Below are positions 5,407 to 60,457 of a DNA stretch of 64,000 nt, in pieces (within the stretch, counting starts at the first letter, position 1; each line of letters starts with the position of its first letter). Position numbers and translations under genes: made by a program. The stretch is from an uncultured Candidatus Saccharibacteria bacterium (GTDB taxonomy: Bacteria > Patescibacteriota > Doudnabacteria > UBA920): positions 128-64,127 of the forward strand of contig CAZTXY010000001.1 in assembly GCA_964617815.1 (NCBI GenBank). Direction: 5' to 3'. Below the pieces are notes generated by a model. That model was given only the letters and a program-made list of their open reading frames with translations, was not told the origin of the DNA and did not search any database.

Positions 5407-5880
5407 TTATTTAAGCCTTTTTTTACTAAACGGTAAGTGTCTTTGGATAAAAGCTAACCCTGGATGAAATGTTAACAATACTACGAAAACTGAAGCTACA
5501 ATTAAAAATCCATCGTAGTCCCAGCGAAGTGGATTATCATCTCTCAAATTTAACCACATCGCAAATTCATCAAAAGCCAATCCTAAACCAAAGCCAAATA
5601 ATCCAGCAATCCAAAACTTTGCTCTAGGGCCTTCAAAAATTAAAGCCAAATAAGAAGTAAGGGCTAAAATAAAGACACCGTAAGTAAAGTGATGCACATG
5701 TAAACCAGGACCAATCTCTAAATATAGCCATGGCATTAAGTACCCAATTATTCTAGAGCCAATAAAAGTTAACAAGAAGGTCGTTGCTATGGGAAAAAGC
5801 AAATCCAAATACAACCCCGGCTTGTGAGTCACAATCTTCTGCCGAATTAAATTCTCTACTTTACTAATTGGATGCCACAT
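5407..5880 (-). CDS. hypothetical polytopic membrane protein
   Basis: 157 aa, about 4 hydrophobic helices; no recognisable motif. Confidence 0.35.
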   Translation of the reverse strand: MWHPISKVENLIRQKIVTHKPGLYLDLLFPIATTFLLTFIGSRIIGYLMPWLYLEIGPGLHVHHFTYGVFILALTSYLALIFEGPRAKFWIAGLFGFGLGLAFDEFAMWLNLRDDNPLRWDYDGFLIVASVFVVLLTFHPGLAFIQRHLPFSKKRLK

Positions 5881-9958: not shown

Positions 9959-10020
9959 AGGGTAGTACTTAGTTCTTAGTGCTTAGTACTTAGTGAGTAC
10001 TAAATACAAAACTGTATAAA

Positions 10021-10485
10021 TTAAACGCGACGGACTTTCTTAGGGCGAACACCGCCGTGAGCGGTTGGAGTCTGATCTTTAATAGTTAAAACTGTTAAGC
10101 CAGAACCTTGTAATGCGCGAATGGCTTGTTCTCGGCCACTACCGATTCCTTTAATCAATACATCAACTTCAGCAAGCCCACGTTCCTTGATTCTAACAAG
10201 CGTGTCTTCCATTGTTTTACCACCAGCATAAGGAGTAGACTTTTTAGAACCTTTAAAACCAGCTTTTCCTGCGCTGCCCCAAGCTATAACATTTCCGCTT
10301 GGGTCAGTTGCCGTAACAATCGTGTTGTTATAAGTCGAGTTAATATAAATCTTGCCTTTAGTAACCTTAATCTTAGACTTTTTCTTTTTACTAGACTTAA
10401 TCTTTGAGGCAATATCAGCAGTAGCAGGAACAATAGCTTCAGCTTCGGTGGTTACTTCTTCAGTTGTTGTTGTTTCTTCAATCAT
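10021..10485 (-). CDS. rpsK: 30S ribosomal protein S11 with a T/E/K-rich N-terminal extension of about 45 aa
   Basis: GIAWGSAGKAGFKGSKKSTPYA...HGGVRPKKVRRV S11 core. Confidence 0.9.
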   Translation of the reverse strand: MIEETTTTEEVTTEAEAIVPATADIASKIKSSKKKKSKIKVTKGKIYINSTYNNTIVTATDPSGNVIAWGSAGKAGFKGSKKSTPYAGGKTMEDTLVRIKERGLAEVDVLIKGIGSGREQAIRALQGSGLTVLTIKDQTPTAHGGVRPKKVRRV

Positions 10486-10576
10486 AAAAAAAGTTCTTAG
10501 TGCTTAGTTCGTAGTGCTTAGTGTGTAACCCAAATGCAGATCTGAGGACTGAGCACTTAGGACTTGGGACTCCTGA

Positions 10577-10966
10577 TTAGGTCTTTTCTGAAGACTTCTT
10601 ACGGCCACTACCTGCTGTTTTTCTAATGTTACCGTGTCTAGTTCGGGAGTTAGTTTTAGTTCTTTGTCCTCGTACTGGCAATCCACGCATATGTCTGATC
10701 CCGCGATATGAGCCAATTTCTTTAAGTCGCTTTATATTAAGGACAATTTGTTGGCGTAAGTCTCCTTCAATTTTATAATTCTTTTCAATAAAATCTCGGA
10801 GCTTGTTAACATCTTCATCACTAAGATCTTTGGTACGAATATTTGGATCAATTTTGGTCGCAGCTAAAATTTTCTTAGATAATGTCAAACCAACACCAAA
10901 AATATAAGGCAATGCTGCTTCAATTCTTTTTTCGTTTGGAATGTTTACTCCTGCGATACGGGCCAT
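10577..10966 (-). CDS. rpsM: 30S ribosomal protein S13
   Basis: [10 protein letters not shown]...[16 protein letters not shown]. Confidence 0.9.
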
Positions 10967-11603: not shown

Positions 11604-13289
11604 CTACCGTTTAATCTCAATATCTACCCGCTGACTAAATCTTGGAAGAGTGCTTTGCCAGCTTGGTTTCAGCAAAACCTCAACTCGGTCAACGTCATCA
11701 GCTGACAACAAAATCTCCCCTGCTTCCTGTTTCGTTTTTCCTAACAATTGTGGCATCAGTCCTTCTAAATCAAGCTCTGCGATGGCTTGAGACTCGTAGT
11801 GCACAGACAAAGTTGCAGTCCCAGCTGCAATATCCATTACTTTAACTTCATATTTTATATTGTCCAGCGATGGATCTTGCAGTGTTCGATTGCCTGATAA
11901 ATTAGTGACAATTCGGTCACGCATTAACTGACTTAATTGAGAAGAATCAAATGCTAAACCTTTAATGTCTACTTTTGCTGTTGCAGTAAAGTTTGGACTT
12001 TCTGTGCCGGCAAGCTTATCGGGCACAAAAGAATTAAAAGTGACAGCGTAGCCTTTGTCTGGAATTATCAAATTACTATCTTTTAATTTTGTTCGCAACT
12101 CCTCGATAATTTTATTTTCTAACGCAGTCTTGGCTTTAACCAAATCTTCTTCGCTAATAATAGAAATAAACCGAGAAGTTCCGCCAACAATTGGAGTTTC
12201 AGTTTTCGCGTACAAAAATTGAGGATTACTCCCAAAAACTTGATTTGTAATTTCAATTCGCGTACCAGCAGGTAAATTATAATCTTCCCCGCCACTACTT
12301 GCTATAATTTCTGCAGAAACTGAGCCTTCTTCTTTATTACTAGAGGGTTTAATCCCAGCTTGGTCTAAAGTAAAAGTATAATTTTTGTTACCGAGCGTTA
12401 AAGTGGTGGTAGCAGCTTTTAAATTAAGAGGATTTGAGGTTAAATTAAAAATTTTAACGGTCCCATGAGCTTTCGTTCCTACTTCTTTTTTCCCTGTAGT
12501 AGCAAAAGACTCCTCGGCCGTCATTGTCTCTTGGACCCGCTCTGCTTGCAAAAATGGCGATCTGACATCGGAATTAGTCGTGGCAGAATTTAATAGTACG
12601 TCAATGTCTCTGGTAATCGGCTGACTTTTGGCATATACCAAAATTTGTGCTCTTGGCAAGATTACAAAGACTACCAACAAAACAATAATTAAAAACACGC
12701 TGATAATTCCAATCGCAAACTTTCTGTATCCTCGCGCTTTTTTTCGAGTTAACTCTTGCTCAAAGGCGGGAGCCTCATCAAATAACGCCTGAACCAAGTC
12801 ATCTTGTTGGGCATTCTCTTTATTGCCTTGATGGACTGAAATATTAGGAACAGCAACTCGGCGAAGAGGAGCCTTGCCAACCCTTTCCATTCTTACTGCA
12901 ACTGGACGCGGAATTTTTCTTGAAAGTTTTTTCTCAACAACTGGTGCTTCGGCAACTTCTAATGGCAGTGCTTGACTTGGGCTATGGGAGAATTCTATTC
13001 CTGGACGGATATCTGAAAAGTTTTTGTTAACAATTCTTTTGGGTAAAAATTTCAAATCAAAACCAGCCTCTTTAGCGTACATCTGACCCATTTCATCCAT
13101 TGTCAAAATTGAGAGTTTTTTCCCTAAAATGTCAGCCTGTTTTTTTAAAAGTCGCAGATTAATACTGTCGGCAAATAAAAAACTTTTTTTGGGGAAAACT
13201 AAAACTAACTCACTGCTGACCTCTTTTTTGAGGCGAGCAGTAATCTTAGTAATATCATCCTCTAAATTTAGATAGAGGGTTTTTATCAT
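11604..13289 (-). CDS. hypothetical bitopic membrane protein (cytoplasmic N-domain of about 190 aa, one TM, large extracytoplasmic domain)
   Basis: 561 aa; single hydrophobic stretch IGIISVFLIIVLLVVFVIL; no recognised motif. Confidence 0.35.
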   Translation of the reverse strand: MIKTLYLNLEDDITKITARLKKEVSSELVLVFPKKSFLFADSINLRLLKKQADILGKKLSILTMDEMGQMYAKEAGFDLKFLPKRIVNKNFSDIRPGIEFSHSPSQALPLEVAEAPVVEKKLSRKIPRPVAVRMERVGKAPLRRVAVPNISVHQGNKENAQQDDLVQALFDEAPAFEQELTRKKARGYRKFAIGIISVFLIIVLLVVFVILPRAQILVYAKSQPITRDIDVLLNSATTNSDVRSPFLQAERVQETMTAEESFATTGKKEVGTKAHGTVKIFNLTSNPLNLKAATTTLTLGNKNYTFTLDQAGIKPSSNKEEGSVSAEIIASSGGEDYNLPAGTRIEITNQVFGSNPQFLYAKTETPIVGGTSRFISIISEEDLVKAKTALENKIIEELRTKLKDSNLIIPDKGYAVTFNSFVPDKLAGTESPNFTATAKVDIKGLAFDSSQLSQLMRDRIVTNLSGNRTLQDPSLDNIKYEVKVMDIAAGTATLSVHYESQAIAELDLEGLMPQLLGKTKQEAGEILLSADDVDRVEVLLKPSWQSTLPRFSQRVDIEIKR

Positions 13290-14570: not shown

Positions 14571-16352
14571 CTATTCTTCAATAACTGCTTTAATGCGGCG
14601 CATTCCAGCTGAGACCGCTTCTTCTTTTGCAATTCTAACTTTACCAATCTGGCCTGTGTGCTCAACATGGGGACCACCACAAAATTCTCTGGAAATAACT
14701 TCGTTTGTTTTGGAATCTATAATTGTGTAAACAGAAACAACGTCATCGTATTTTTCACCAAACAGTCCAATCGCGCCAAGTTCACGCGCTTTTGCAAGAG
14801 GCATCATTTCACGTGTCACAGTCGCATCTCTCACAATCCAGTCATTCACTAAATCTTCAACTTCTTTTTTTTGTTCATCGGTCATCTTTTGCGGATAGGT
14901 AAAGTCAAATCTTGTTCGCTCTTCGGTAATATTACTGCCTTTTTGCCAAACATCTTCGCCAAGAACTTGCCGTAAAGCCTTATGCATTAAGTGAGTGGCG
15001 GTGTGGTAACGCACAACTTTGTCGCTAGTATTTGCTAAGCCGCCTTTAAATTCTCCGGCGCTGGCAGTTCGAGATAAGTCTTGATGTTTTTTAAATTCAT
15101 CTTTAAATTCTTGCTCGTCTACATGCTGACCTGAGGCTTCTGCTAATTCTTTTGTAAGTTCCCACGGGAAACCAAAAGTTTGATATAAGTTAAAGGCGTC
15201 TGTCCCAGTAATTTTATTTTGGGAAGCAAACTGTTTCTCAAATTCTTTCAAACCTTTTTCCAAGGTTTTAACAAACTTAGATTGTTCTCCTTCAATGATG
15301 GCAAAAATGTGCTCAGATCGTTCAACCAATTCAGGATAACTTTCAGCATAAATGGTTACAACTTTACCGACTAAACTTTCAAGCCAATGCGGCTGTAAAT
15401 TAAGTAACTTGGCGAAGACCATGGCGCGACGAAGAAGTCTTCGGACAATATAGCCACGATCTTTATTTGAAGGCTCAACGCCATCCCCCACAATGAAAAC
15501 GCTAGCTCGGATGTGATCGACAATAATACGAGCTCGCCTAACTTCAGTGTTAGTCATAATATCTTGCGACAATGCAATAACTTCAAATAATGGCGCAAAA
15601 AGTTCAGTATCATAAACAGAAGTTTGACCATTAAGCACAGTCAGTGTGCGATCTAAGCCCATACCTGTATCAACGTTTGTTTTTGCCAAAGGAATTAGTG
15701 CTCCATCGGCTTTCTTTTCATACTGCATGAAGACATTATTCCAAATTTCTACCCAACGCTTATCGTCTTTGGTTTCTTGAAAATTTGCCGGAGTTGGAGT
15801 GCCGTCATCTATCCAGTAAAACATCTCTGTGTCTGGTCCACATGGTCCTGTGGTCCCCGCAATCCACCAGTTATCTTCTTTTGGCAAAAATGCAACGCGT
15901 GAATCCGGTACCCCTAGAGATTTCCAAATCGAAGCAGATTCATCATCACGAGGGGCGTCTTCGTCACCTGCAAACACTGAAAAAGCTAAACGATCTAAAG
16001 GAATATTTAACCACTCTGGTGAAGTTAAAAATTCAAAGCTCCATTTTATAGAGTCTTCTTTGAAATAATCTCCCAAACTCCAGTTGCCGAGCATTTCAAA
16101 AAAAGTTAGATGAGTGTCATCACCCACTTCATCAATATCGCCAGTGCGAATACATTTTTGCGAATTTGCTAAACGCTTTCCTTTTGGGTGATCTTGGCCA
16201 AGCAAAAAAGGCACCAAAGGATGCATGCCGGCCATGGTATATAAAACGGAAGCGTCATTCTCTGGAACTAAAGAAGCTGATGGAATAATTACATGGCCTT
16301 TGGAAGCAAAAAAATCAAACCATTTCTGTCTTAGCTCATTTCCTGTAATCAT
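14571..16352 (-). CDS. alaS: alanine--tRNA ligase, short form lacking the C-terminal C-Ala/DHHA1-like domain
   Basis: Class II catalytic motifs (FFASKGH, CIRTGDIDEVGDDTHLTFFEMLGNWS) plus editing-domain HxxxH (HTATHLMH) and CGGPHVEHTG motifs; only 593 aa. Confidence 0.8.
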   Translation of the reverse strand: MITGNELRQKWFDFFASKGHVIIPSASLVPENDASVLYTMAGMHPLVPFLLGQDHPKGKRLANSQKCIRTGDIDEVGDDTHLTFFEMLGNWSLGDYFKEDSIKWSFEFLTSPEWLNIPLDRLAFSVFAGDEDAPRDDESASIWKSLGVPDSRVAFLPKEDNWWIAGTTGPCGPDTEMFYWIDDGTPTPANFQETKDDKRWVEIWNNVFMQYEKKADGALIPLAKTNVDTGMGLDRTLTVLNGQTSVYDTELFAPLFEVIALSQDIMTNTEVRRARIIVDHIRASVFIVGDGVEPSNKDRGYIVRRLLRRAMVFAKLLNLQPHWLESLVGKVVTIYAESYPELVERSEHIFAIIEGEQSKFVKTLEKGLKEFEKQFASQNKITGTDAFNLYQTFGFPWELTKELAEASGQHVDEQEFKDEFKKHQDLSRTASAGEFKGGLANTSDKVVRYHTATHLMHKALRQVLGEDVWQKGSNITEERTRFDFTYPQKMTDEQKKEVEDLVNDWIVRDATVTREMMPLAKARELGAIGLFGEKYDDVVSVYTIIDSKTNEVISREFCGGPHVEHTGQIGKVRIAKEEAVSAGMRRIKAVIEE

Positions 16353-16389
16353 ATTGGTATTATATCTAAATTTTGAAGATAAAAGAAGA

Positions 16390-16415
16390 GCCGGCGTCCC
16401 TCGTGGAACGCCGGC
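16390..16415 (-). terminator. hairpin terminator downstream of the island-A gene
   Basis: Stem GCCGGCGT/ACGCCGGC followed by a T-rich run on the minus strand. Confidence 0.5.
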
Positions 16416-16438
16416 ATACTCGAACCTACTAACAATGA

Positions 16439-17479
16439 TTACCGCGCCGGAATACGTCCGGCAGAAACAAGCAATCGCTTGAGCAGTTTGTTCGTCTGAG
16501 CGCCAATCTTATTGGATCTCCGAACCTCAGCCAGGATCTCCTTGAGAATCACGTCTTGGCTGATGAACTCTTCGAGCTCAGGAGGCTCCACTGCCAAGTT
16601 GCGACTGGTCGGAGCAGAATCTGCAGACAACACCCCAGTGGCAGTGTCGATGATCCTCTGGGCGTCCGAACCTGCCGGCACTTCGAGTTCACTTGTGCTG
16701 AAACGTAAGTCAACTCGCTCATTGAAAAATGCCTTAGCCAAATCTGCGAAGAGCAAGCGCCTTTCGATCAGCGTATTAATCATCATCACTTCAATGGCCG
16801 TCCGATGAACAGGATCCATATCCCATCCATTGTTTACCAGTAGTTGCATAAACAGCTGACCCCTCTCCAAGTCAATGCCCACGATGTACATGGTCGGCTC
16901 GATGAATCCCCGGTCTCGAGTTTGCTTGGTAAGCTCTTCGCACACCTCATCATAGAGACGCGGAAAACTTATATACCGGAGAGTTCCTTGATACCCTCCG
17001 AAGTCAAGGGGTTTATCTAGCGGCTTATACTGGGGATACTCCGCGAAGTTATGCACGAACTGAAACAGCATGCTCAGTTGTGGGAGACTAGTCATCTGAC
17101 TTTTGATCTTGTTGACCTCCACGATCCAGTCTGGATCATTAGTCGATGACCCCTCTGGTACTGGAGGTAAAGTATAGATCATGCCGCGGACTTTGCCCTT
17201 AGCCTTATGACCATCACCACAACAATACCCAATGTTCCCTGACGTAGCCCCCACAACATGGCAAAACCTTGTCAGCATGGCATTCCCGTGTGTTAAGACA
17301 TTGAGGTGATCTGGATCGCTCTTCTCCTGAGCACGAAAATCAGACTCAAAATCGTCTAGAGCTATTCCAATTTCAGGCGCAAACTTCGCAGTTAGCGCGT
17401 TGATGTTTGAATTCCCCCCTTTCAGATTTTCCCCCAAAATCTGCGTCGCCGCCAAGACTATTCCGGATTTATTGCTCAC
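16439..17479 (-). CDS. hypothetical protein in GC-rich island A
   Basis: 346 aa ORF at about 50% GC versus under 40% for flanking genes; GGGAGG RBS 6 nt upstream; Cys-rich patch CHVVGATSGNIGYCCGDGH; no family recognised. Confidence 0.5.
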   Translation of the reverse strand: MSNKSGIVLAATQILGENLKGGNSNINALTAKFAPEIGIALDDFESDFRAQEKSDPDHLNVLTHGNAMLTRFCHVVGATSGNIGYCCGDGHKAKGKVRGMIYTLPPVPEGSSTNDPDWIVEVNKIKSQMTSLPQLSMLFQFVHNFAEYPQYKPLDKPLDFGGYQGTLRYISFPRLYDEVCEELTKQTRDRGFIEPTMYIVGIDLERGQLFMQLLVNNGWDMDPVHRTAIEVMMINTLIERRLLFADLAKAFFNERVDLRFSTSELEVPAGSDAQRIIDTATGVLSADSAPTSRNLAVEPPELEEFISQDVILKEILAEVRRSNKIGAQTNKLLKRLLVSAGRIPAR

Positions 17480-17544
17480 GGTCTTCCTCCCTTTGGTGCG
17501 CTAGTAGCGCAAAAATGTCGGCGTCTGTTGTGCGCGAACATCCT

Positions 17545-17573
17545 AATATATAACAAAAACCGGCTTTAGTCAA
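17545..17573 (-). promoter_or_regulatory. sigma70-like promoter for the island-A gene (TTGACT-17-TATATT)
   Basis: Hexamers read on the minus strand; the -35 overlaps the terminator hairpin (17558-17580) of the upstream cyclase gene. Confidence 0.5.
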
Positions 17574-17592
17574 GCCGGTTTAGTAATTCTTC

Positions 17593-19359
17593 TTAAATTT
17601 TCTCTAAATCAAGTGTGTAAATTTTAATTGGCTCTACTCGCCCCTTCACCGTAGCGTCGTCTACATAAACTAATGGATATTCTTTTTTTAACAAATCTTT
17701 GGTGGACTGACTAATAAGAATTTTAGTATTGTACTGCTTATTAGAACTTTCTAAGCGTGATGCGGCGTTAACAGTGTCACCCATCGCAGTGTAATCAAAA
17801 CGCTGATCAGAACCAACATTTCCTACAACTGCAGGACCGCTGAACAAACCAATCCCTATATTTATTTCTGGATCCCCGGCTGCAACTAATTCTTCATTCA
17901 AAATTTTCAACGCTTTTAACATTGCGATAGAAGTTTGCAAAGCTTTATCTGCCTGATCATCATCAACCAGTGGTGCACCCCAAAAAGCCATAATCGCATC
18001 CCCAATGTATTTATCTACCACTCCATCGCGCTCCAAAATAATTCCAGTCATTACGGTAAAATATCTGTTCAGCACGCGGACCAGTTCTGTTGGTGAAAGT
18101 TTTTCTGAAATTGTAGTAAAGCCACGAATGTCAGAGAAAAATAAGGTAACTTGTTTTTCTTCTCCACCCAATTTTACTTGAGCTGGGTTACTCATAATAT
18201 GATTGAGCACTTCTTTCGAAACATACTTACTAAAAATATCTTTCATTTCATGGCGTTCACGTTCCGCGCTAACATACCGAAAAACTATCAAACCGACCAA
18301 AGAAAGTATCCACGACAGCTGAACATGAATCAATGGCAAAACTATACCGCTGTCAAACAATATAACCGAAGCAGTAATCGCAACGATTCCAGAAACTAAG
18401 CTGACAATAAGCACAAGCCATGTGCGTCGAAATAGAATAAACCAAAGTAGCGGCAAAAAGCTTGCAATAAAAATGAATAGCAACATCTGCCACGGAGAAA
18501 CTTCATGCAAAGACCAATTTTGCAAAATCATGTTGGCAATATTGGCTTGTATTTCTACGCCCGGCATTTTTGTTCCAAAACTAACTGGCGTACTTTGAGT
18601 ATCCTGCAGATCCGCTGCCGTAGCGCCAATTAAAACTTTTTTTCCTGCTAATTCACTTAGTCGTTCTCCATTGGCGACCTGCCAAAAAGGAATGCGCGTA
18701 ACACTGCCTGGCGCACCTGCGTAGACAATTGACCGAACAAGTAATTCATTTTCATCAATCTCACGGCCTGCCATCAGTCTGCCAAAACTTGGAATACTGT
18801 TACCCGAAGAATCAAAAATAATATGTGGGTATAACCGAACCACGTTGTCAGGATCGGTAATTAAATTAATGTGCCCAAGGACAACAGGCTTATTGGTAAA
18901 CTGTAACTTTGTTTTAGTTAAGCTAGTTGCAGTCGGAGTTCCATTGGATAATTTTAAGTCCAAGGCTTCAACAGGCAAAACTACCGGGTAATTAGCTTGG
19001 CTGAGAGCAGTTTCCAAAGACAAGTCATCAGCTTGCCCCAAGCGACTGTCTTCAGCAAACATAACATCAATGCCAAGCCTTGCTGGAGCAACTTGATTTA
19101 ACGCACTAATAACTTTAGCAAACTCGAGTCTTGGCCATGGCCACTGACCAATTTTTTGCAAAGACTCGTCGTCAATTGCCACAATTACTAAGCTGGAATC
19201 AGCCTCTCTTCCCCCTTGCAAGCGATCTTGCAAAATTCTGTCCATCCCCGCAAACAAACCAATAGAATGCGAAGCATAAACAACTACAAAAATAACAAAA
19301 CACACTCCTAGTTGGCTAAGTATTTTTCTGTTAGATTTTACCCAAGCATTCTTTATCAT
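17593..19359 (-). CDS. CHASE2 sensor-domain adenylate/guanylate cyclase (class III)
   Basis: N-terminal CHASE2-like periplasmic region, TM helices, C-terminal cyclase motifs FSDIRGFT and YIGDAIMAFWGAP. Confidence 0.8.
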   Translation of the reverse strand: MIKNAWVKSNRKILSQLGVCFVIFVVVYASHSIGLFAGMDRILQDRLQGGREADSSLVIVAIDDESLQKIGQWPWPRLEFAKVISALNQVAPARLGIDVMFAEDSRLGQADDLSLETALSQANYPVVLPVEALDLKLSNGTPTATSLTKTKLQFTNKPVVLGHINLITDPDNVVRLYPHIIFDSSGNSIPSFGRLMAGREIDENELLVRSIVYAGAPGSVTRIPFWQVANGERLSELAGKKVLIGATAADLQDTQSTPVSFGTKMPGVEIQANIANMILQNWSLHEVSPWQMLLFIFIASFLPLLWFILFRRTWLVLIVSLVSGIVAITASVILFDSGIVLPLIHVQLSWILSLVGLIVFRYVSAERERHEMKDIFSKYVSKEVLNHIMSNPAQVKLGGEEKQVTLFFSDIRGFTTISEKLSPTELVRVLNRYFTVMTGIILERDGVVDKYIGDAIMAFWGAPLVDDDQADKALQTSIAMLKALKILNEELVAAGDPEINIGIGLFSGPAVVGNVGSDQRFDYTAMGDTVNAASRLESSNKQYNTKILISQSTKDLLKKEYPLVYVDDATVKGRVEPIKIYTLDLEKI

Positions 19360-20678
19360 TATGGTTTATCGTTTGGAGATGGTGGTCGTTGAAAGATAAT
19401 TTGCACTAAACTCTTGCCAGAAAGTTGGACTCCTGTTTCTGGGCTAGTCCATTTTGCGGAAATATACCCGCTGACACTTGGACTTTGATTATATGTTGGA
19501 GCGGTAAGCACTCCAGGACTACTAATTGCTCCTATATTACTGTCCGCTGACCAACTACTACTTGAAGTTACGTCTTGCTGAGATCCATCTGAATAGCTAA
19601 CTAAAGCTTTAAAAATTAAAGTTGCACCGGATTTAATATTAGCAGTGTCAGAAAAACTATAAACTGCTAAGCGCTGTGGCACAGCTTGGGGGGAAGGAGT
19701 GCTTACTTGTGGTGTACCAGTATTGGTGCCACCACCTGTTGTTGGCTTTGGCGTTGGTTTTGTAGCTCCAGTCGTTTCTAAAACACCATCTTCAGTCCTT
19801 AGTTCCTCTTGCAACTCCATAACAAACCGATAAACTGGATTGCGACCAATTCTACGTTGTCTTTTAATATCATCGCGGAACCTATCTTGAAAATGCTTAG
19901 CAACAGCTTTTCGATAAGCTCCCTGTTCAGAGTTTTTATCCTTAATGTCTTTTAAAATCAAATTTCGGTTATCGTCTTGACTACGATTATTATTCCACCA
20001 CTCAGAATTTTTTAGATCTTCAGGAACATCAACCACAGCTTCAATTAAAGCTTTAGGATTATCTTTTAAGCGAGCCAAGAGCCCTTCGTCAATCACAATA
20101 TATTTCTTTTCACCAATTAAAGCTGGATCCCCGATTGGGCTTGATGTTTGTGAATCTCTTATCTGCAGGCTAATTTCATGCTCTGAGCCTGCAATAATAG
20201 TTCGATTACCTTCAGCGCTGACACCAAAGGCAGTTCCGCGCACTGTCGCTACAGTATTACTTGTTTTTACGTCCCAAGAAGAACTAGGAGTAGCCAATTC
20301 AAAAACCTTAGACCAAATTCTCCCTGCCTCCAATTTTAGCCCAGTACTTTGCTGGCCTGTACTACTATTATAATTATGATTGTCTATAGTAAAAGTAGTA
20401 TTAGGATCAATACGTGCGACAGAGCCATCTGGATAGTGAATTGTGGCAATGCCTGCGTTATTAGTTTGAAGTACATCACCAATTTCCAACTCATCACCAC
20501 TGGCGATAGTAGCTTTTGGCTCTCGGGTAGTTGCATCAAGCTCAAAGAGACTGTCAGATAAAACTTCTGCCCAAGGCTGGGTAATTGGCTGAGCCTGAGT
20601 CTTACGAGATGACCAAATTCCAAAACTTACAGCCAATAACACTAAGACAACGACACCAATAACTATTTTGAATTTCAT
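19359..20678 (-). CDS. FecR-domain protein with Pro/Thr-rich linker and C-terminal beta domain
   Basis: Signal anchor plus FecR-like segment (TVATVRGTAFGVSAEGNRTIIAGSEHEISL); start overlaps the cyclase stop by 1 nt. Confidence 0.55.
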   Translation of the reverse strand: MKFKIVIGVVVLVLLAVSFGIWSSRKTQAQPITQPWAEVLSDSLFELDATTREPKATIASGDELEIGDVLQTNNAGIATIHYPDGSVARIDPNTTFTIDNHNYNSSTGQQSTGLKLEAGRIWSKVFELATPSSSWDVKTSNTVATVRGTAFGVSAEGNRTIIAGSEHEISLQIRDSQTSSPIGDPALIGEKKYIVIDEGLLARLKDNPKALIEAVVDVPEDLKNSEWWNNNRSQDDNRNLILKDIKDKNSEQGAYRKAVAKHFQDRFRDDIKRQRRIGRNPVYRFVMELQEELRTEDGVLETTGATKPTPKPTTGGGTNTGTPQVSTPSPQAVPQRLAVYSFSDTANIKSGATLIFKALVSYSDGSQQDVTSSSSWSADSNIGAISSPGVLTAPTYNQSPSVSGYISAKWTSPETGVQLSGKSLVQIIFQRPPSPNDKP

Positions 20679-30846: not shown

Positions 30847-30896
30847 GTCGCTACTCGCACACCTCGAGACACTTGGAAAATCCTGTAGGAGGGAAG

Positions 30897-31445
30897 ATGA
30901 ACACAAGCCATCAAGAAGGCGTTGTGCGGTTGCAGAGCAGGCTGGGATTGCTTGGATTTAACTACTTTCCCCCGAAAAGCGGAAGGGATGACAAGAAGCA
31001 CTGCTTTTCAAAATCTGTCGGGCCTGCCCGCCACAAGACTGCAGTCCGAATTTGGCTGAAGCTTTTCAACGAAGGCTTCGGCAGCAAAGAACGGTATGCC
31101 GCTTCTATCATTCTGGTCGGCAATGGCTGGGGAGAACTCTGGAAGTTTAAATCCTTGGCCTGGAGCAAAAATCCTGAGGGAAATCTCAAACGCTTGTTTG
31201 CTAAAGCAAAGCTAGCAAGCAAATTTCTAGGCTCCCAGATTTACTGCCCCACTTTGGGGCACGGCTTGGGAAAAGGGATGAAACCCATTCTCGTCGCAGA
31301 CAGACGGCGACACATGACCATTGCCTGGCGCTGTTGCCACGCTGGATGTCAGTCGACTTTCAGGCTTGAAAGCAAACTCTCCAATGCAATCATGGTTCAG
31401 ACCGACAAGGCCTTTCTGCTTGAACTAGCGACCACTGGCGTCTAA
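30897..31445 (+). CDS. hypothetical Cys/His/Trp-rich protein in GC-rich island B
   Basis: 182 aa from the ATG at 30897, preceded by AGGAGG at 30887-30892; the ORF-track start at 30873 is TTG. About 50% GC; contains WRCCHAGC and YCPTLGHG. A stop-free 190-codon frame is improbable by chance. Confidence 0.5.
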   Translation: MNTSHQEGVVRLQSRLGLLGFNYFPPKSGRDDKKHCFSKSVGPARHKTAVRIWLKLFNEGFGSKERYAASIILVGNGWGELWKFKSLAWSKNPEGNLKRLFAKAKLASKFLGSQIYCPTLGHGLGKGMKPILVADRRRHMTIAWRCCHAGCQSTFRLESKLSNAIMVQTDKAFLLELATTGV

Positions 31446-32313: not shown

Positions 32314-32562
32314 CTAGTGCGTTTCGCCCCGAAGGCGGACGACCCGAATGACGTGTGGCTTCACGTAATTCGGGTGACGATGACAGCCTGGGCAACCGAG
32401 CTGTAGTTCATACATCATGCCCATTTCTCGCTTTAGGCCTTCGGCCAAAGTAATGACTTCCTGTCTGGAGAACTCCTCAGGATCTAGCCTGGCGGTGAAC
32501 TCTCGTCCTGGCTGAAGCGCGATACTAACCCGCAAAATATCGCAAGGTGTTGCAAGTGACAT
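32314..32562 (-). CDS. small CPGC/His-motif protein, island-C paralogue 1
   Basis: 82 aa; AGGAGG RBS 5 nt upstream; C-terminal GCPGCHRHPNYVKPHVIRV; paralogous to the upstream gene. Confidence 0.5.
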   Translation of the reverse strand: MSLATPCDILRVSIALQPGREFTARLDPEEFSRQEVITLAEGLKREMGMMYELQLGCPGCHRHPNYVKPHVIRVVRLRGETH

Positions 32563-32576: not shown

Positions 32577-32855
32577 TTAACAGACATAGTCTGTGCCGGA
32601 TATGCTTGTGGCCACAGCCAGGTTTAAAACTTCCCGCCTGACCACCAGTACGTGATTAATCGGCTGGCCCTCATGACAACTACACCCAGGGCAACCGCCG
32701 CCGTGTTCCGTGACGCAGAACTCACGAGCAAGTTCTGCTTGCAAGCGCGCAATACGTTCAGCCGTAAACTGGTACCGCAACTCTGCGGCAAAGCTTTGGC
32801 CTTCGCGCAAAGTCCGAGCAAGAGCCATAACCCTTGCTGGCGTCATCAATTCCAT
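32577..32855 (-). CDS. small CPGC/His-motif protein, island-C paralogue 2
   Basis: 92 aa; GGGAGG RBS; C-terminal GGGCPGCSCHEGQPINHVLVV aligns with paralogue 1 (TP...L, GCPGC, HV..V.R). Confidence 0.5.
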   Translation of the reverse strand: MELMTPARVMALARTLREGQSFAAELRYQFTAERIARLQAELAREFCVTEHGGGCPGCSCHEGQPINHVLVVRREVLNLAVATSISGTDYVC

Positions 32856-32982: not shown

Positions 32983-33444
32983 TTATCTAGTTACTGAAAT
33001 AGTTTCCGACAACTCTGCGCTCGGCGCAGAGACTGTGATTCTGTTAGTAGTACTATCTTTTACAATACTATACCCAGTACTGTAGTCACTACTGCTGGCA
33101 AAGTGTGCACCACTACTTGATGGATCAAACGGTAAAGTAGATAAATAATTTGGAGAAAGGCAATTTGCAATATCATACCCGCCAGAACTTGCCATATTAC
33201 TAGCAGTTGTGGGAATGTCACCGCTACTGCAAGTAAAGACACCTTTATTATCAACCATATTTTGACCAACTGCATTTAAGATTGCATTAACATTACTAAC
33301 TCGCTGTGTATTGCGACTTTGTGCAAACTGTCGCCCTGGATTTATAGCGACTAAAACTATAGTTGCTAAGATTGCGATTATGCCAATTGCGACCAAGATT
33401 TCAATCAAAGTAAATCCCTTTTGGGGAAATTTATGTGAGTTCAT
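32983..33444 (-). CDS. pilA: type IV pilin (major pilin-like)
   Basis: Prepilin leader plus KGFTLIEILVAIGIIAILA N-methylation/cleavage motif. Confidence 0.8.
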   Translation of the reverse strand: MNSHKFPQKGFTLIEILVAIGIIAILATIVLVAINPGRQFAQSRNTQRVSNVNAILNAVGQNMVDNKGVFTCSSGDIPTTASNMASSGGYDIANCLSPNYLSTLPFDPSSSGAHFASSSDYSTGYSIVKDSTTNRITVSAPSAELSETISVTR

Positions 33445-36253: not shown

Positions 36254-37226
36254 GACCTATTAACAACGCCGGCTCCATAAGAGTATTTACACGCTTAACC
36301 AAAGCGTCTAACTCTTGTTCATAGTAATCGGCTAAAAATAAAAATGTCTGAGAGAATTGCCCAGAAGATTCTGCAGCCTCTACCATTTGACTAAAGGTTA
36401 AAGGCCACAAACTTTTTTCTAGATACAAAGAACCTGCAACCGGTCTCCCTTCTTTAATTTCTGCTGATATTTTAAAAAGATTACTTTTATACCGGCTTGG
36501 TATTTTACTGTTTGCAACTGTTTGAAGGGCAAAAAAAATATCAGAGCTATAAATTAAACTAATACCTAACATTCGTGCTATATAACTTGTGTAATAAAAA
36601 CGGAGACAGTCACCGGCAATCCATAGATGTAATATAAAATTAAAAATAACTTTAACAGCGGGTGTTTTAATTAAAATAAATATTGCGACACCGATTAAAG
36701 CTACCAAACTCACAATTAACACTAGCCAATGTTCCGAAATTAAGTTTGTAACAAAGATAAGCATCCTTGTCGTCCAGGGTAGAGTGACATGCAAACTCGC
36801 AAACACAGGCATAATTTTGGGAAAAAGGTATCCAAGCAATAAACCACCTAACACAATAGTTGCAAAACAAATCACTGCTGGATATAAAAATATCCCGACA
36901 ATTTTTTGTTGTAAAATTTTTTGTTTTTCCAACAATCCTGCAGCATAATCTAAACACTCGACTAAATGGCCAGAGTTTTCACCAACTTCCAAAATTGCAA
37001 ACACTGTGGGGTTTACTCTCGTGCTTACTTTTTCTAAAGTTACAGATAAAAGCTCACCTCTCGCCACTGCCTTAGTTAATCTGTCAAAACTATTTTTTTG
37101 TTTGGGCTCGCTGCTTTTTGCTAAAAACTCAAGAGCCAAACCAAGGGGTAACCCAGACTTAAGCAATAACGCCAAGCGTTTGCATAAAATTACTACATGA
37201 CTTCCCCGTAACTTACCGTTGTTCAT
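36177..37226 (-). CDS. pilC: type IV pilus assembly platform protein PilC (GspF family)
   Basis: GspF-domain motifs and 3 TM helices; 349 aa. Confidence 0.75.
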   Translation of the reverse strand: MNNGKLRGSHVVILCKRLALLLKSGLPLGLALEFLAKSSEPKQKNSFDRLTKAVARGELLSVTLEKVSTRVNPTVFAILEVGENSGHLVECLDYAAGLLEKQKILQQKIVGIFLYPAVICFATIVLGGLLLGYLFPKIMPVFASLHVTLPWTTRMLIFVTNLISEHWLVLIVSLVALIGVAIFILIKTPAVKVIFNFILHLWIAGDCLRFYYTSYIARMLGISLIYSSDIFFALQTVANSKIPSRYKSNLFKISAEIKEGRPVAGSLYLEKSLWPLTFSQMVEAAESSGQFSQTFLFLADYYEQELDALVKRVNTLMEPALLIGLGLLVGFIAVSIITPIYGITQSFRP

Positions 37227-38328
37227 ACAAAACCCTTTCCAGTTCCATTGTCGTAGTTAGGCCATCTCTAATTTTTTGTTGCCCATCACTTTGCATTGTG
37301 GTCATCCCAAAGCGTAGCGCTAATTCTTCAACCACCCCAAAAGATTGTTTTTTGGCAATGGCTTCCGCAAGTAAACCGTCAACAGCTAAAGTTTCATAGA
37401 TTCCTACTCGACCAGAAAAACCACTCAGAGAACAAATACTGCATGTATCTACTAAGCCTTGCCCAAAACAATACGAACACAACTTTCTTACTAAACGTTG
37501 GCCAACAACAAGCTTCAAAGTTGCAGCAATTAAATACGGAGCTATTCCCATATCTGCCAAACGTACAATACTACTTAGAGCATCAGTCGTATGAAGTGTC
37601 GAAAGTACTAAATGCCCTGTTAGGGCAGCCTGTATAGCCAAACTTGCAGTCTCACTATCGCGTATCTCACCGACCATAATAATATCCGGGTCCTGTCTAA
37701 GCACACTTCTTAAACCGCCAGCGAAACCAAAACCTCTGGCTGGAGAGACTGGAATTTGGCGCACTCCGCCAATTGCATATTCAACAGGGTCTTCTATAGT
37801 TATAATCGAAGACTCCGCAGTGTTTAACATTTGGAGTAGAGCGTAAAGTGTTGTGGTCTTACCGCTTCCAGTTGGTCCAGTTGCAATAATAAGTCCTGAG
37901 CGCATGTCCAGCGCAGACAAAACTCGCCGCTGATCAGACTCAGACATTCCCAACTCAAAAAGGCTTAAAGCAGTATTATCGGTACGCAAAACTCTGAGCA
38001 CAGCGTTCTCTCCATAATGTGTTGGCATGATTGATACTCGCACATCAAATTCATAATTTGGAGCAACAGAGTATCGGAAACGCCCGTCCTGAGGAAGACG
38101 ATGTTCGTCTATTCGAAGACCGGCTAAATTCTTAATCCGATTAATTACTTCTGTATGAGTGTATGTAGCTAGTGGCTCGACATCCCGAAGTAACCCATCC
38201 ACGCGCAAGCGAATACGCACACACGTATTTGTGGGATCAATATGTATGTCTGAGGCCTTATACTCCTTGGCAGTTGTGAGTAATTCTTTAACGATATCAG
38301 TTTCTTGCATGGCTAAACTATAAACCAC
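37213..38328 (-). CDS. pilB: type IV pilus ATPase (GspE/PilB family, short form)
   Basis: Walker A GPTGSGKTTTLY, Asp and His boxes, C-terminal tetracysteine CSYC...CSIC. Confidence 0.8.
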   Translation of the reverse strand: MVYSLAMQETDIVKELLTTAKEYKASDIHIDPTNTCVRIRLRVDGLLRDVEPLATYTHTEVINRIKNLAGLRIDEHRLPQDGRFRYSVAPNYEFDVRVSIMPTHYGENAVLRVLRTDNTALSLFELGMSESDQRRVLSALDMRSGLIIATGPTGSGKTTTLYALLQMLNTAESSIITIEDPVEYAIGGVRQIPVSPARGFGFAGGLRSVLRQDPDIIMVGEIRDSETASLAIQAALTGHLVLSTLHTTDALSSIVRLADMGIAPYLIAATLKLVVGQRLVRKLCSYCFGQGLVDTCSICSLSGFSGRVGIYETLAVDGLLAEAIAKKQSFGVVEELALRFGMTTMQSDGQQKIRDGLTTTMELERVLYEQR

Positions 38329-40440: not shown

Positions 40441-40547
40441 TGGAACTATGAATTCGTCGCCTGTTTTGGGGCTTTAGCATGCCTACGCTAAACCTTGAAA
40501 CAGCCGAAATCTGAAATGTAGTTACAACCAAATAGGAGCGATAGACT

Positions 40548-40862
40548 ATGAATGGTCTGAGCACTGTCGAAATCGATGGCCGAAGGGTCATCGAAATCAC
40601 TGACTTCAACAAGTCCAAGGCGATCGCCGCCCCGATCCATCTCGCCATCACGGCGGCCAAGATGGGCATCGAGACCCAGAGCGAGAGCCATCATCCGGCC
40701 CACCCGGAAGCAAAGGTCATTTCGTACCCGGTGTGGATGGCAGGATGGGGGGGCAACATGAAGGTTTTCCCGATGACGGCCCCGCAGTTGATCGACTATC
40801 TGCGTCGTGGCCGTGGCGAGCACTCGCCCGACCACACGACCGTCGTCGCCGCGACGGTCTAG
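40548..40862 (+). CDS. hypothetical protein in GC-rich island D
   Basis: 104 aa, about 58% GC; AGGAG RBS 7 nt upstream; no family recognised; minus-strand ORFs here are composition artefacts. Confidence 0.5.
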   Translation: MNGLSTVEIDGRRVIEITDFNKSKAIAAPIHLAITAAKMGIETQSESHHPAHPEAKVISYPVWMAGWGGNMKVFPMTAPQLIDYLRRGRGEHSPDHTTVVAATV

Positions 40863-40888
40863 ACCGAAACCGCGCAACCCGCGCACAC

Positions 40889-40920
40889 AGGCCACCCCGA
40901 CACTTTGTCTGGGGTGGCCT
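40889..40920 (+). terminator. terminator of the island-D gene
   Basis: GC-rich stem AGGCCACCCCGACA/TGTC(T)GGGGTGGCCT followed by TTCTCATTT. Confidence 0.55.
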
Positions 40921-40940
40921 TTCTCATTTATAATCAAAAA

Positions 40941-40973
40941 AAGCGGCACCCTTTGTTGCAAAGGGTGCCGCTT
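40941..40973. terminator. bidirectional terminator
   Basis: Perfect 15-bp stem AAGCGGCACCCTTTG/CAAAGGGTGCCGCTT, A-run before, T-rich after. Confidence 0.6.
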
Positions 40974-45799: not shown

Positions 45800-46990
45800 T
45801 TAGTTGTTGGGCTTCATAGCCCTGTTCCAGCGGCTGCCGCTGGAGTTGTTCCGAACCTGCCCACCACCGTCGGTGGGAGCAAGAGCGCGTTGTCCTCCGT
45901 TGTTACGCCGATCCCCGCGGCGCTCATCCGGAGCGACCACAGGATCGTCCTGATGCTTGATCGGCTTGGTGTCAGGACTTTGCCCATTGTTACGGATGAT
46001 CACCGGAACGAGAACCCAATTTCGGGTTACTCGCGGCTCAAAAGTTGCACACTCCCTCTCCCCAAAGGAGACTGTGATCACGCCATCTTCCCAGACAGCC
46101 GATCCGTTTCGATCCAGCGCAGTTGTCTTGTTGCGCTTGACCTCAACGGTTTGAGTGTGATTGTCAGGCCAGCTGACCTTGAGTTGGCCTTTGTCGTGCG
46201 AAGGATTTGTCGCATTCGCGACACGATCGCCAGCAGCTGTGCTGGTGGTCGAAAGCAGTACTGCCTTCCCACGCTCACCCTTCGAGCTACCGGCGTACGA
46301 AATCACGCCGGCGATGACCGTCTTCACCACAGTGCCCACGATCCCACCGACAGCCTTTTCGCGGCCAGAAGCCTCGCCCTTATATGAAATCTCAGGGCAA
46401 TCCGGACACGGAACGGTCACTGTTGTGGTCACCGGTTTTGGAGTCTCCGGTGTCGGCGGCAATGGTACCTCGGTAGTCCAAGTGTTCTCACACTTGTCCT
46501 CCCAATAGTAAATCCTCTTGCCGTCCCGATCCTCGAACTTGATGAGGGTCGGCGGTTCGTCCACGACACAGGGTGTCGCTTCCGGCTCAGGCGGGGTTGT
46601 AACCCACTTGAGCCGATTGAACGTCACACCGCCAGTGGAAGTTCGACATCCCTCCAAGTAACCAAGGGTCCAAGAACCTGGATCAAGGTAGACCCAGGCT
46701 TCGGGGTTGTCGCCCAGGTAGATCACCCGAGCGATTTTTCCGAATTCGTTCCAGGCCGGGAGCTTCCGGTATTTCTCCGGAATCTCCTTGACCTGGACAC
46801 GCTTGTACCCCTCGAACACCGACTTATCACCGGTGTACTTGGGGTGCGAGAAGACCTCGCTGGAGAGCTTCGTCATCTCATAGCGATCGCTACGGATGAG
46901 AGCCTTGCGATTCTGCGCATGCGCTGCCTGGGCCGTGAGGCCCAGGAGAAGCGCCGTGAGAAGAACGAGGGAAAAGATCACCTTGTTCAT
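45800..46990 (-). CDS. hypothetical secreted protein in GC-rich island E
   Basis: 396 aa, about 58% GC; signal peptide MNKVIFSLVLLTALLLGLTAQAAHA; Pro/Thr-rich linker; CPDCPE; C-terminal low-complexity R/N/G-rich tail. Confidence 0.45.
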   Translation of the reverse strand: MNKVIFSLVLLTALLLGLTAQAAHAQNRKALIRSDRYEMTKLSSEVFSHPKYTGDKSVFEGYKRVQVKEIPEKYRKLPAWNEFGKIARVIYLGDNPEAWVYLDPGSWTLGYLEGCRTSTGGVTFNRLKWVTTPPEPEATPCVVDEPPTLIKFEDRDGKRIYYWEDKCENTWTTEVPLPPTPETPKPVTTTVTVPCPDCPEISYKGEASGREKAVGGIVGTVVKTVIAGVISYAGSSKGERGKAVLLSTTSTAAGDRVANATNPSHDKGQLKVSWPDNHTQTVEVKRNKTTALDRNGSAVWEDGVITVSFGERECATFEPRVTRNWVLVPVIIRNNGQSPDTKPIKHQDDPVVAPDERRGDRRNNGGQRALAPTDGGGQVRNNSSGSRWNRAMKPNN

Positions 46991-47005: not shown

Positions 47006-47734
47006 TCAGCGGCCCTCAACCAAATTTGCATCGTTCGCCGCCTCCAAAATCATGCGGAGGCTAGCGAAGAGAGTTTCTTGCCCATAGTAGTTCCGGGTCT
47101 TTGGCAGACGCACACCCAGTTGGGCCAGCGCGCCAATTGCCGGACCTCCTGTCTGCGCCGAAAAGGTGGAGCTCTGAGAGCCCCCCCACGGAATCCTCAA
47201 CTGTCCTGACCCCGTGGTAAATTCAAACACCTCGGCGTCAGATAGTGACTTTCCCGTGATCTCACCGCGCTGATTGCGCAGTGTGATTTCGACGTAAACT
47301 CGGTATGCGACCTTACGCGAGTTCTGCCCGCGCAAAGAGAAACTCTCCTGCACCGGCACCGAACTGACGTTCGGCTGAATACGCATAATGAGCTCGGCGT
47401 ACTTACGCTCCGCAACTGGTCGGCTGTCACCGAAAGCCCCCGCTTCGATCAAGCGGTTCACCAGTTTCTCGGCCATTGCCGAGTTCTGGAAACCACTAAC
47501 CTCTACGAAGACCGGAGTGAGCTGCTGAGGCGCGGATTGCGCCGGAGCATTAGGAACCGGCTGAGATGCCGGAACCGGCGCTGGCTGCGACGTCGCATTC
47601 GGGTCACCCTGCGCGGGACCCCAACGACGAGCCGCTTCTTCGCGGGTCATCAACTTGCGGCCCGACTGGGCCAAAGCGATCGGTGCCAACACGGCAACGA
47701 TCAGGAACGCGACAAAAATCTTGGTGGTGCTCAT
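47006..47734 (-). CDS. hypothetical secreted protein in GC-rich island E
   Basis: Start moved to the internal ATG (MSTTKIFVAFLIVAVLAPIALAQ signal peptide), which has an AAGGAG RBS 7 nt upstream; Pro/Gln-rich linker; about 58% GC. Confidence 0.45.
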   Translation of the reverse strand: MSTTKIFVAFLIVAVLAPIALAQSGRKLMTREEAARRWGPAQGDPNATSQPAPVPASQPVPNAPAQSAPQQLTPVFVEVSGFQNSAMAEKLVNRLIEAGAFGDSRPVAERKYAELIMRIQPNVSSVPVQESFSLRGQNSRKVAYRVYVEITLRNQRGEITGKSLSDAEVFEFTTGSGQLRIPWGGSQSSTFSAQTGGPAIGALAQLGVRLPKTRNYYGQETLFASLRMILEAANDANLVEGR

Positions 47735-47963
47735 GGATCTTTCTCCTTGTGTATCTGCGTGATGTATGGCCATGAACAGCCATGGGGACGACTAAATATT
47801 AACTAATCGCTTAGTTATCATTAGCCCTCCTCAGAGCTGTCAATGAACTTTCCAACTGATTGTGCTTTTAGGCACATTCCTGCCCCGCCCTCGCGGCGGG
47901 ACAAGATCTGCATGAAAGCTGTAACTTAATAGTATACTCTTCTACTTACATTCCTGTCGAGGC

Positions 47964-59992: not shown

Positions 59993-60421
59993 CTAGGTGA
60001 AAACAATCTCTTCGCGCCACTCGGACAAGCCGGCTTCAAAAATACTTGCCCGCTTCTCGATCTGCCAAAGAGGCACGCCATGAATATTGCGGCTTGCGGC
60101 CTCAAGTGGGTTACAAACCAAGCGAATGACTCGGCAGTGAGCCTGGCGAGATTTTGCTGCCTCCCAGTAACGCTCAGCCTCCCAGAGCATGACGTTGGTG
60201 TTGTCAACCACGATCAGCGGGGCACCTGCGTAAAGGATCTCCAAGAACTTGTCCCAGCAAGTCCCATGTGCATCGGGCAAGAGGCTCGAGCAGAACCTGA
60301 ACTCTCTGTTTTCATCATAGAAGTATTCGTCAGCAGAGCAAACGATTGCTTCCGGAAAATTCTGGGCCACATAGTGTGACTTCCCAGAACCTGAGATCCC
60401 GCGCATAATAACGATGGTCTG
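59993..60421 (-). CDS. P-loop kinase of the AAA_33 type (predicted nucleotide/polynucleotide kinase)
   Basis: Walker A GISGSGKS, LIVVDNTN Walker-B-like motif; about 52% GC; start moved to MQTIV, which has AGGAGG 7 nt upstream. Confidence 0.55.
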   Translation of the reverse strand, partial: QTIVIMRGISGSGKSHYVAQNFPEAIVCSADEYFYDENREFRFCSSLLPDAHGTCWDKFLEILYAGAPLIVVDNTNVMLWEAERYWEAAKSRQAHCRVIRLVCNPLEAASRNIHGVPLWQIEKRASIFEAGLSEWREEIVFT

Positions 60422-60457
60422 CATGACTATTCTCCTCCTCTTTGACATCCGACATCA

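Follow-up and report, generated by a model that had tools for sequence, protein, structure and literature searches.

A single-gene variable slot upstream of alaS in uncultivated Patescibacteria, and the replacement of its orphan reading frame across lineages

The stretch of DNA analysed here, 64 kb from an uncultured Candidatus Saccharibacteria bacterium (hereafter the window), carries between alaS and a gene for a CHASE2/class III nucleotide cyclase a single gene of 346 codons, which we call X; the allele and contig of the window are denoted W, and the contigs of its relatives by L-numbers. X occupies a variable slot upstream of alaS and downstream of the FecR/CHASE2-cyclase pair, framed by conserved host DNA. 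Comparison of its alleles with their flanks indicates that the open reading frame (ORF) between these conserved frames alone is replaced, across lineages, by homologous replacement, and that the predicted C-terminal helix of the protein forms a separately variable module. The overall explanation that we tentatively favour, at somewhat less than an even chance, is that the swapped ORF encodes an intracellular conflict or specificity factor; its functional part, that X is a conflict or specificity protein, we place at roughly one chance in three.

Exchange of the X reading frame between lineages

The group in which X can be compared comprises eight contigs from three lineages, and X is present in all eight, always in the order cyclase, X, alaS; three of these contigs (L087, L088 and L089) were added by walking out through cyclase homologues, and all three carry X. 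By cyclase identity, W forms lineage 1, L001, L002, L003 and L087 form lineage 2, and L004, L088 and L089 form lineage 3, with cyclase nucleotide (nt) identities of 98-99.5% within lineage 2 and of 84-88% between the three lineages. The nearest species representatives are metagenome-assembled genomes labelled as Saccharibacteria, Doudnabacteria or Patescibacteria, and since their alaS is only about 75% identical, W comes from an unrepresented lineage of the candidate phyla radiation (CPR).

The alleles of X are distributed quite differently from the flanks. Within lineage 2, L001 and L003 are 99.0% identical in the cyclase gene, with a synonymous divergence (dS) of 0.04, whereas codons 1-287 of X are only 71.6% identical (dS about 2.4); between lineages, W and L003/L087 are 85.6% identical in the cyclase gene (dS 0.74), whereas codons 1-287 of X are 99.8% identical (dS 0.005). 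At least three classes of N-domain allele can be distinguished, at 72-82% nt identity, and their distribution among the lineages contradicts that of the flanks, an incongruence that requires recent homologous replacement across lineages whose cyclases are about 85% identical. Mismatch maps place the edges of the tract common to W and L087 at 17524 and 16593-16625, and the divergence between alleles A and B of lineage 2 extends from 17483, in the space that separates the ribosome-binding site (RBS) from the start codon, to about 16421-16437, just past the stop codon. The junction between the lineage-2 flank and allele A occurs in two separate assemblies, L003 (European Nucleotide Archive) and L087 (Logan, a 31.7-kb contig), and the C-terminal tails of L003 and L087 are only 78.7% identical to that of W, which together argue against a chimera formed from W-type reads. 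The features of the locus, including the exchanged tract, are as follows (coordinates of the window; GC3 is the GC content of third codon positions).

17593..19359, minus strand: CHASE2/class III cyclase gene (Pfam assignment), 5' neighbour of X
17557..17581, minus strand: intrinsic terminator hairpin of the upstream cyclase gene, 10-bp stem and T-run, identical in the three lineages
17545..17573, minus strand: sigma-70-like promoter of X, TTGACT-17-TATATT, 10 of 12 consensus matches, in the conserved host flank
17480..17544, minus strand: GC-rich 5' untranslated region (5'UTR) with the RBS GGGAGG (17486-17491) 6 nt before the GTG, no significant structure
16439..17479, minus strand: gene X, 346 amino acids (aa), GTG start, predicted cytoplasmic, pI 5.5, GC 0.497, GC3 0.548, orphan family
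16625..17523, minus strand: recently exchanged tract, 99.8-100% identical to L003/L087, 1 mismatch in about 900 bp
17207..17263, minus strand: Cys/His patch CHVVGATSGNIGYCCGDGH, residues 73-91 of X, varying between alleles and absent in the distant homologues
16439..16609, minus strand: C-terminal module of X, about codons 291-346, a linker and an amphipathic helix (QDxILKEILAEVRR...) with a basic end, the helix predicted at low confidence
16390..16415, minus strand: intrinsic terminator of X, 11-bp stem with 9 GC pairs and T-run, in the conserved flank, at the 3' edge of the GC-rich block
16348..16377, minus strand: promoter-like site of alaS, TTCAAA-18-TATGAT, from a consensus scan, conserved in relatives
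14571..16352, minus strand: alaS, 3' neighbour of X

A second level of exchange lies within the gene itself. The tail of X is hypervariable (52-79% nt identity) and is exchanged separately, four tail variants being found against three N-domain classes, with the internal breakpoint falling within a conserved AQRIIDTA...DSAPT segment, and a sliding-window analysis of synonymous differences (pS) shows further mosaicism between the allele classes. In allele B the tail contains a 75-nt in-frame tandem duplication of a unit of about 25 aa, QxEILKEILxEVRRxNxIGAQ, from which it follows that the tail is built from a repeatable module; the duplication is located at L001:8390-8513, aligning to about 16510 of the window, and its two helix units read QNEILREILAEVRRANEIAAQ and QDEILKELLDEVRKGNQIGAQ. 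Neither blastn-short nor tblastn found a second copy of any part of 16353-17592 in the window, and silent cassettes or the template repeat of a diversity-generating retroelement (DGR) within the window were dropped for this reason. The tail differences moreover include indels and the 75-nt duplication, unlike the adenine-specific substitutions of DGR targets; the negative result for a DGR concerns the template repeat in the 64-kb window, no search having been aimed at a reverse transcriptase.

The pace of change in X sets it apart from its surroundings. Between relatives the protein is 72-76% identical and its neighbours are 91-98% identical, X changes 3-4 times faster as a protein than the adjacent cyclase, and the synonymous divergence between alleles A and B, about 2.4, is saturated, against 0.77 in the flank. 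These values have to be set beside those of the other allele pairs, since the dS of A-C and of B-C in X is 0.84-0.95, near the 0.64-0.95 of the cyclase between the same lineages; therefore one native allele per species and a single introgression would explain much of the pattern without balancing selection. This is the core of a serious rival to our favoured explanation, one that we regard as possible though on balance unlikely, namely that X is an ordinary lineage-specific protein, for example a structural or regulatory one, inherited vertically and evolving fast, with its own allele in each species, one chance introgression (of allele A into lineage 2) by natural transformation, and a GC excess that comes from local recombination or codon selection. 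The occurrence of X at the same site in every contig of the group and the comparable A-C and B-C divergences fit such a protein well, and the low amino acid identity relative to the neighbours, the saturated A-B divergence, and the additional mosaicism with its four tail variants fit it poorly.

A variable slot framed by conserved host DNA

The gap between alaS and the cyclase gene spans exactly 16353-17592 and holds a single ORF; the other genes around X are PGI, the FecR gene and an S41 peptidase gene. The gaps beside X, of 113 and 86 bp, contain no partner ORF and leave no space for a second gene. Against the GC3 of X stand values of 0.26-0.34 across eight flanking genes (about 0.31), with a GC average of 0.39 for the window, and the GC-rich block reaches with sharp boundaries from just past the -10 box to the downstream terminator, so that it coincides with the transcription unit. 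An earlier reading of the locus made without database searches (the sequence-only reading) had described a single 346-aa gene at about 50% GC between alaS and the CHASE2 cyclase, foreign by composition, with a TTGACT-17-TATATT promoter overlapping the terminator hairpin of the upstream gene and a further GC hairpin terminator downstream in the alaS promoter region, and all of this is borne out by the GC content, the lone ORF, the GC3 contrast, the position of the promoter (17573..17545) over the hairpin, and that of the terminator (16415..16390) near the alaS site (16377..16348). The GGGAGG that it had placed 6 nt before an ATG is present at that spacing, but the start codon in W is GTG (17477-17479), ATG being the start in allele B of the relatives. 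Its picture of a stand-alone gene with expression signals of its own survives as regards the single transcription unit, but the signals themselves belong to host DNA conserved on either side of the ORF.

This last point is central to how the slot is understood. The X promoter has its -35 box within the loop of the hairpin that terminates the cyclase gene, an overlap kept in all three lineages, the -35 box being identical and the -10 box nearly identical across the relatives. Common to all lineages are the cyclase terminator, the -35 and -10 boxes, most of the 5'UTR, the RBS, the terminator of X, and the alaS promoter, and these signals therefore form a host "socket" in which the ORF alone is replaced; their conservation together with the host flanks is also what an ordinary lineage-specific gene would display. 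When the region was compared with shuffled sequences, terminator-like sites were enriched (4 found against 1.2 +/- 1.2 expected) and promoter-like sites were not above chance (3 found against 2.0 +/- 1.5 expected).

The content of the slot changes from one part of the clade to another. In L005-L013 the S41 peptidase gene adjoins alaS across a gap of about 0.1-1.2 kb, with no FecR gene, cyclase gene or X, and the gap holds an unrelated 307-aa orphan ORF in L007 (4991-5914), GC3-richer than its host, and a 137-aa ORF in L009. The absence of the FecR-cyclase pair from the junction of these close relatives means that the pair has itself been gained or lost at the site. Farther away, L090 and L092, whose cyclases are 59% and 58% identical to that of W, carry X homologues of 319 and 323 aa in the cyclase/alaS slot. 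Their identity to X is about 22%, and the relationship is supported by BLASTP (E = 1e-5 to 1e-6, with some 300 residues aligned colinearly), by Smith-Waterman scores against 500 shuffles (z = 11-14.5 for L092 and 5-6 for L090), and by hhalign, which aligns the distant homologues with X colinearly over 269 columns (E = 6.8e-4); the two are 31% identical to each other (E = 7e-28). In L094, with a cyclase at 50% identity and full synteny, the slot is filled by an unrelated 311-aa orphan (9938-10873), and L093 has in the cyclase/alaS slot an unrelated GC-rich ORF on the opposite strand (5194-5589, 131 aa, partial). Homology of X to the slot genes of L007 and L094 was considered and rejected, with z about 0 for L094. 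The slot of L092 (3392-9956) holds four further GC-rich genes besides the X homologue, encoding proteins of 561 aa (with a weak coiled-coil-like match), 667 aa (with an N-terminal GHKL HATPase_c_3 domain), 417 aa and 462 aa, and these extra genes could constitute an undescribed multi-gene system, none of them matching PADLOC.

In every cyclase-bearing relative examined, the slot genes on the alaS side exceed their hosts in GC3, by +0.13 to +0.29, the exception being a 124-aa minus-strand ORF beside the cyclase gene of L090 (GC3 0.22), and for the X family the excess, +0.15 to +0.24, persists in each of the three lineages with a member. None of the slot genes has a significant match in PADLOC, PHROGs or viral contigs. 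For an ordinary lineage-specific protein, the homologues in the same slot of two more distant lineages are a favourable sign; the 22% identity of those homologues against 58% for the cyclase, the unrelated gene in L094, the presence of nothing or of other ORFs in the S41/alaS relatives, and the retention of the GC3 excess are not.

The same comparisons decide most of what can be said about the foreign island to which the sequence-only reading leads, a single gene recently brought in from some unrelated donor or a phage, equipped with a promoter and a terminator of its own and serving as cargo for defence or toxicity. The content of the slot does vary between related genomes (L007, L092, L093 and L094), which fits accessory or conflict cargo. 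Together with the sharply bounded GC3 contrast and the lack of X homologues outside the clade, this variation is what speaks for a foreign island. A new insertion is contradicted by the synteny, X being at one site in eight contigs, fixed in the sampled relatives, and represented in two lineages farther away by distant homologues at the equivalent position; the presence/absence polymorphism that had been proposed as a check was not found within the group, whose variation is between alleles. The conserved flank includes the promoter, RBS and terminator, only short flanking repeats at chance level occur at X, with no integrase and no direct or inverted terminal repeats, ARAGORN finds no tRNA gene in the 64-kb window, and there are no phage, plasmid or viral-contig relatives and no PADLOC match. 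Nor do the neighbours alaS, PGI, FecR/CHASE2 cyclase and S41 peptidase, which include no recognised defence genes, suggest a defence island. We thus consider a foreign island, largely refuted by synteny, to be improbable.

An orphan protein family

X is a genuine, constrained protein-coding gene. Differences between its alleles fall at the three codon positions as 80/53/169, with the third position dominating, and the ratio of nonsynonymous to synonymous divergence (dN/dS) rises from 0.07-0.13 over codons 1-290 to 0.3-0.46 in the C-terminal tail. A GC-rich block in an AT-rich genome often marks a structured RNA, and this, with the failure of AlphaFold to give a confident fold, might be counted in favour of a GC-rich block that is no protein gene at all, being instead a structured RNA, a spurious ORF or an assembly artefact. 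The substitution pattern refutes this idea, the frame is intact in eight separately assembled contigs and in the distant homologues, and the region offers little sign of RNA structure: Rfam has no match at the gathering threshold in the 64-kb window, its sole match in the region being at chance level (E = 0.94), and the leader of X, with a fold z-score of -1.1 and 0 covarying pairs, gives no support for a riboswitch or structured leader. The chance that X is not a protein gene is accordingly next to nil.

The family to which X belongs is, as far as database comparison can tell, tiny, fast-evolving, previously undescribed, and confined to one clade of Patescibacteria. Among 5.8 billion proteins its homologues form three clusters, at 95, 76 and 72% identity, and an exhaustive phmmer search of 1.8 billion representatives added only one match, P0004, a nine-repeat SpaA/Cna-B-like protein on reading its sequence, which was rejected as a homologue; the match is spurious because its score is summed over the nine repeats. 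When the distant homologues were added to the profile, a search with it recovered known members alone, and no further relatives came from tblastn against phage and plasmid collections, from four scans of viral contigs or from one of a metagenome. Pfam, NCBIfam, PADLOC and PHROGs contain nothing significant for X, Pfam nothing for any of the four alleles, and Pfam, PADLOC and PHROGs nothing for the distant homologues. In PADLOC-DB v2, no family matches X at E <= 10, and for the distant homologues and slot neighbours there is nothing significant, the best being mad5 at E = 0.049. Searches of the PDB by sequence and with three profiles gave nothing below E = 0.03, and the best matches, a TRAPP subunit (E = 0.035) and a cytochrome (0.19), were judged to be chance. 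The sequence-only reading had found no assignable motif in X, and these databases agree; no housekeeping enzyme proved homologous to X with a matching composition in relatives, the outcome that it had named as its own refutation. Its assignment to defence or toxin cargo receives no support from homology in PADLOC, Pfam, NCBIfam, PHROGs or the PDB.

X is predicted to be a cytoplasmic protein, with a maximum 19-residue hydropathy of 0.98, hence no transmembrane segment, and an N-terminus that, judged by eye, is unlike a signal peptide. AlphaFold2 models from alignments of four and five sequences are unusable (mean predicted local distance difference test scores, pLDDT, of 35.2 and 36.8), and the secondary structure that they suggest is indicative and of low confidence: N-terminal helices, a mixed alpha/beta core at about 100-255, a linker, and a long C-terminal helix at about 305-339. 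The Cys-rich patch and basic C-terminal tail that had been pointed out in the sequence-only reading are both present, but the patch is not conserved across the family; as the distant homologues lack it, it is not a family-defining site, and its candidacy as a metal or catalytic site was dropped.

The position of X directly behind a nucleotide cyclase gene raises the question of whether the two work together, X being an effector or regulator for the cyclic nucleotide monophosphate (cNMP) made by the FecR/CHASE2 cyclase, either as in the antiphage cyclase-effector systems Pycsar and CBASS or as an ordinary second-messenger output. As in Pycsar/CBASS pairs, the cyclase gene lies immediately upstream on the same strand; the X family has been seen only directly downstream of the FecR-CHASE2-cyclase pair, in three lineages, and L005-L013, which lack the pair, also lack X. 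Unlike in Pycsar/CBASS, however, the cyclase is a membrane CHASE2 sensor paired with FecR and of native composition, as is typical of ordinary signalling, and a conserved terminator separates it from X, which has its own promoter. No cNMP-binding domain was detected in X, the exchange of X alleles is independent of the cyclase, and the pair lacks X in L097, where it adjoins RuvA, and in L098, where its context is different again, and is accompanied by an unrelated slot gene in L094. A functional link to the cyclase is on this evidence very improbable. In the window, the stop codon of the FecR gene (19359..20678) overlaps the start of the cyclase gene (17593..19359), and the pair recurs across contexts in Patescibacteria.

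Interpretation of the exchanged gene

The explanation that we tentatively favour, an intracellular conflict or specificity factor in a swapped slot, rests on the combination of fast protein change, cross-species sharing of alleles, modular ends, a slot shared with other genes, and atypical composition. Exchange would probably proceed by DNA uptake and RecA-type recombination, with the conserved frames and conserved stretches within the gene, such as AQRIIDTA at the internal breakpoint, serving as homology arms. X would act inside the cell, the likeliest class being a single-gene anti-phage, anti-mobile-element or immunity-type protein, in which the putative alpha/beta core would carry the activity, the C-terminal amphipathic helix and the variable patch at residues 60-95 would determine recognition of a partner or target, and frequency-dependent selection would drive the turnover of alleles. 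The GC excess might stem from import from GC-richer relatives (the clade ranges from 35 to 50% GC, L007 standing at 0.50) or from GC-biased gene conversion at a recombination hot spot. Experiments have shown Saccharibacteria to be naturally competent, with homologous recombination (PMC10633639), and a link between recombination and raised GC3 has been reported in bacteria (PMC4450053). The window also contains type IV pilus genes, a pilin (32983..33444) and a PilB/T-like ATPase (37213..38328), which fit a DNA-uptake route.

Several considerations weigh against this interpretation. X has no homology to defence, toxin or immunity families, so that its class is argued from evolutionary behaviour and context; an ordinary lineage-specific function would also account for a core under purifying selection (omega about 0.1) and for the fixation of X in all genomes sampled; the A-C and B-C synonymous divergences discussed above lie close to those of the flank; the lineages sampled number three; and the sharp GC edges at the limits of the transcription unit are not obviously predicted by gene conversion.

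Comparison with known systems places the locus more securely than it places the protein. In replacement-type flexible genomic islands, the "replacement fGI" of Rodriguez-Valera, divergent alleles or non-homologous cassettes sit at equivalent positions and are swapped via conserved flanks, O-antigen and capsule loci being examples. The X locus has the defining features of such a slot, with a fixed position, divergent alleles, non-homologous content in relatives, a gene tree in conflict with that of the flanks, breakpoints in conserved flanks, and atypical composition. It differs from O-antigen and capsule islands in being a single ORF, predicted to be cytoplasmic, in place of a multi-gene surface-glycan cluster, and from replacement islands in general, which are usually AT-richer, in being GC-richer than its host, a reduced CPR genome. 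With the single-gene cargo of defence hot spots X shares its stand-alone organization, atypical composition, rapid evolution and inter-lineage transfer, and its slot likewise accepts other cargo such as the GHKL-ATPase cluster of L092; unlike such cargo, neither X nor its slot neighbours match a PADLOC model, there is no link to mobile elements or phages, and X is fixed rather than patchy in the sampled group.

The modular design invites a further comparison, with polymorphic toxins, the CdiA-CT modules of contact-dependent inhibition (CDI), and HsdS swapping. Like these, X combines a conserved N-terminal body with an independently recombining hypervariable C-terminus, a breakpoint at a conserved junction motif, and a repeat-unit duplication in one allele. 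Unlike polymorphic toxins, its variable module is only about 55 aa long and a single predicted helix, hence too small for a toxin domain, and X is without an adjacent immunity gene, a secretion signal, or homology to toxins or HsdS. No toxin domain was detected in X, and with no adjacent partner ORF either, there is nothing at X of a toxin-antitoxin or toxin-immunity module. Taken together, the locus does not show the tested features of defence systems, integrative elements, toxin modules, DGRs, cyclase-effector pairs or structured RNAs.

The window contains other GC-rich ORFs (GC 0.50-0.58 and GC3 0.56-0.66, against a genome GC3 near 0.3), at 30873..31445 (+), 32314..32562 (-), 32577..32855 (-), 40488..40961 (-), 45800..46990 (-), 47006..47773 (-) and 59993..60448 (-). 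No paralogy between them and X was found; they may nevertheless be further variable slots of the same kind. Pfam, applied to six of them, gave one match, 59993..60448 being an AAA_33 (P-loop kinase-like) domain, and 45800..46990 and 47006..47773 have signal-peptide-like N-termini. The ORFs 32314..32562 and 32577..32855 (-) are tandem paralogues of 82 and 92 aa (33% identity, E = 1e-7) with a common GCPGC motif, and they adjoin the type IV pilin-like gene. Elsewhere in the window, downstream of PGI, 11604..13289 (-) encodes a conserved 561-aa protein that is syntenic across the clade at 42-88% identity and has only a sub-threshold Baseplate_J-like match (E = 0.0024). A bolder extension of our favoured explanation, which we think unlikely, would have X found an undescribed specificity or defence family of Patescibacteria, in which promoterless ORF cassettes in a fixed socket are swapped by transformation, specificity is set by the helix, turnover follows frequency-dependent selection, and the other GC-rich orphan units of the window are further sockets.

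The CPR or Patescibacteria have tiny genomes, and their diversification, phage resistance and host recognition are little understood. If the bolder extension were true, ultrasmall episymbionts, for all the reduction of their genomes, would maintain a pan-genomic armoury. The X locus offers a clean single-gene case of cross-species allele replacement, with breakpoints placed at base-pair level in a conserved expression frame, and its practical value at present is that of a well-characterised lead. Should X turn out to act in defence or specificity, it would represent a new family together with a simple cassette-in-socket mechanism of exchange; should it prove to be an ordinary fast-evolving gene, the locus would still be of use in uncultivated ultrasmall bacteria as a natural marker of recombination and perhaps of GC-biased conversion.

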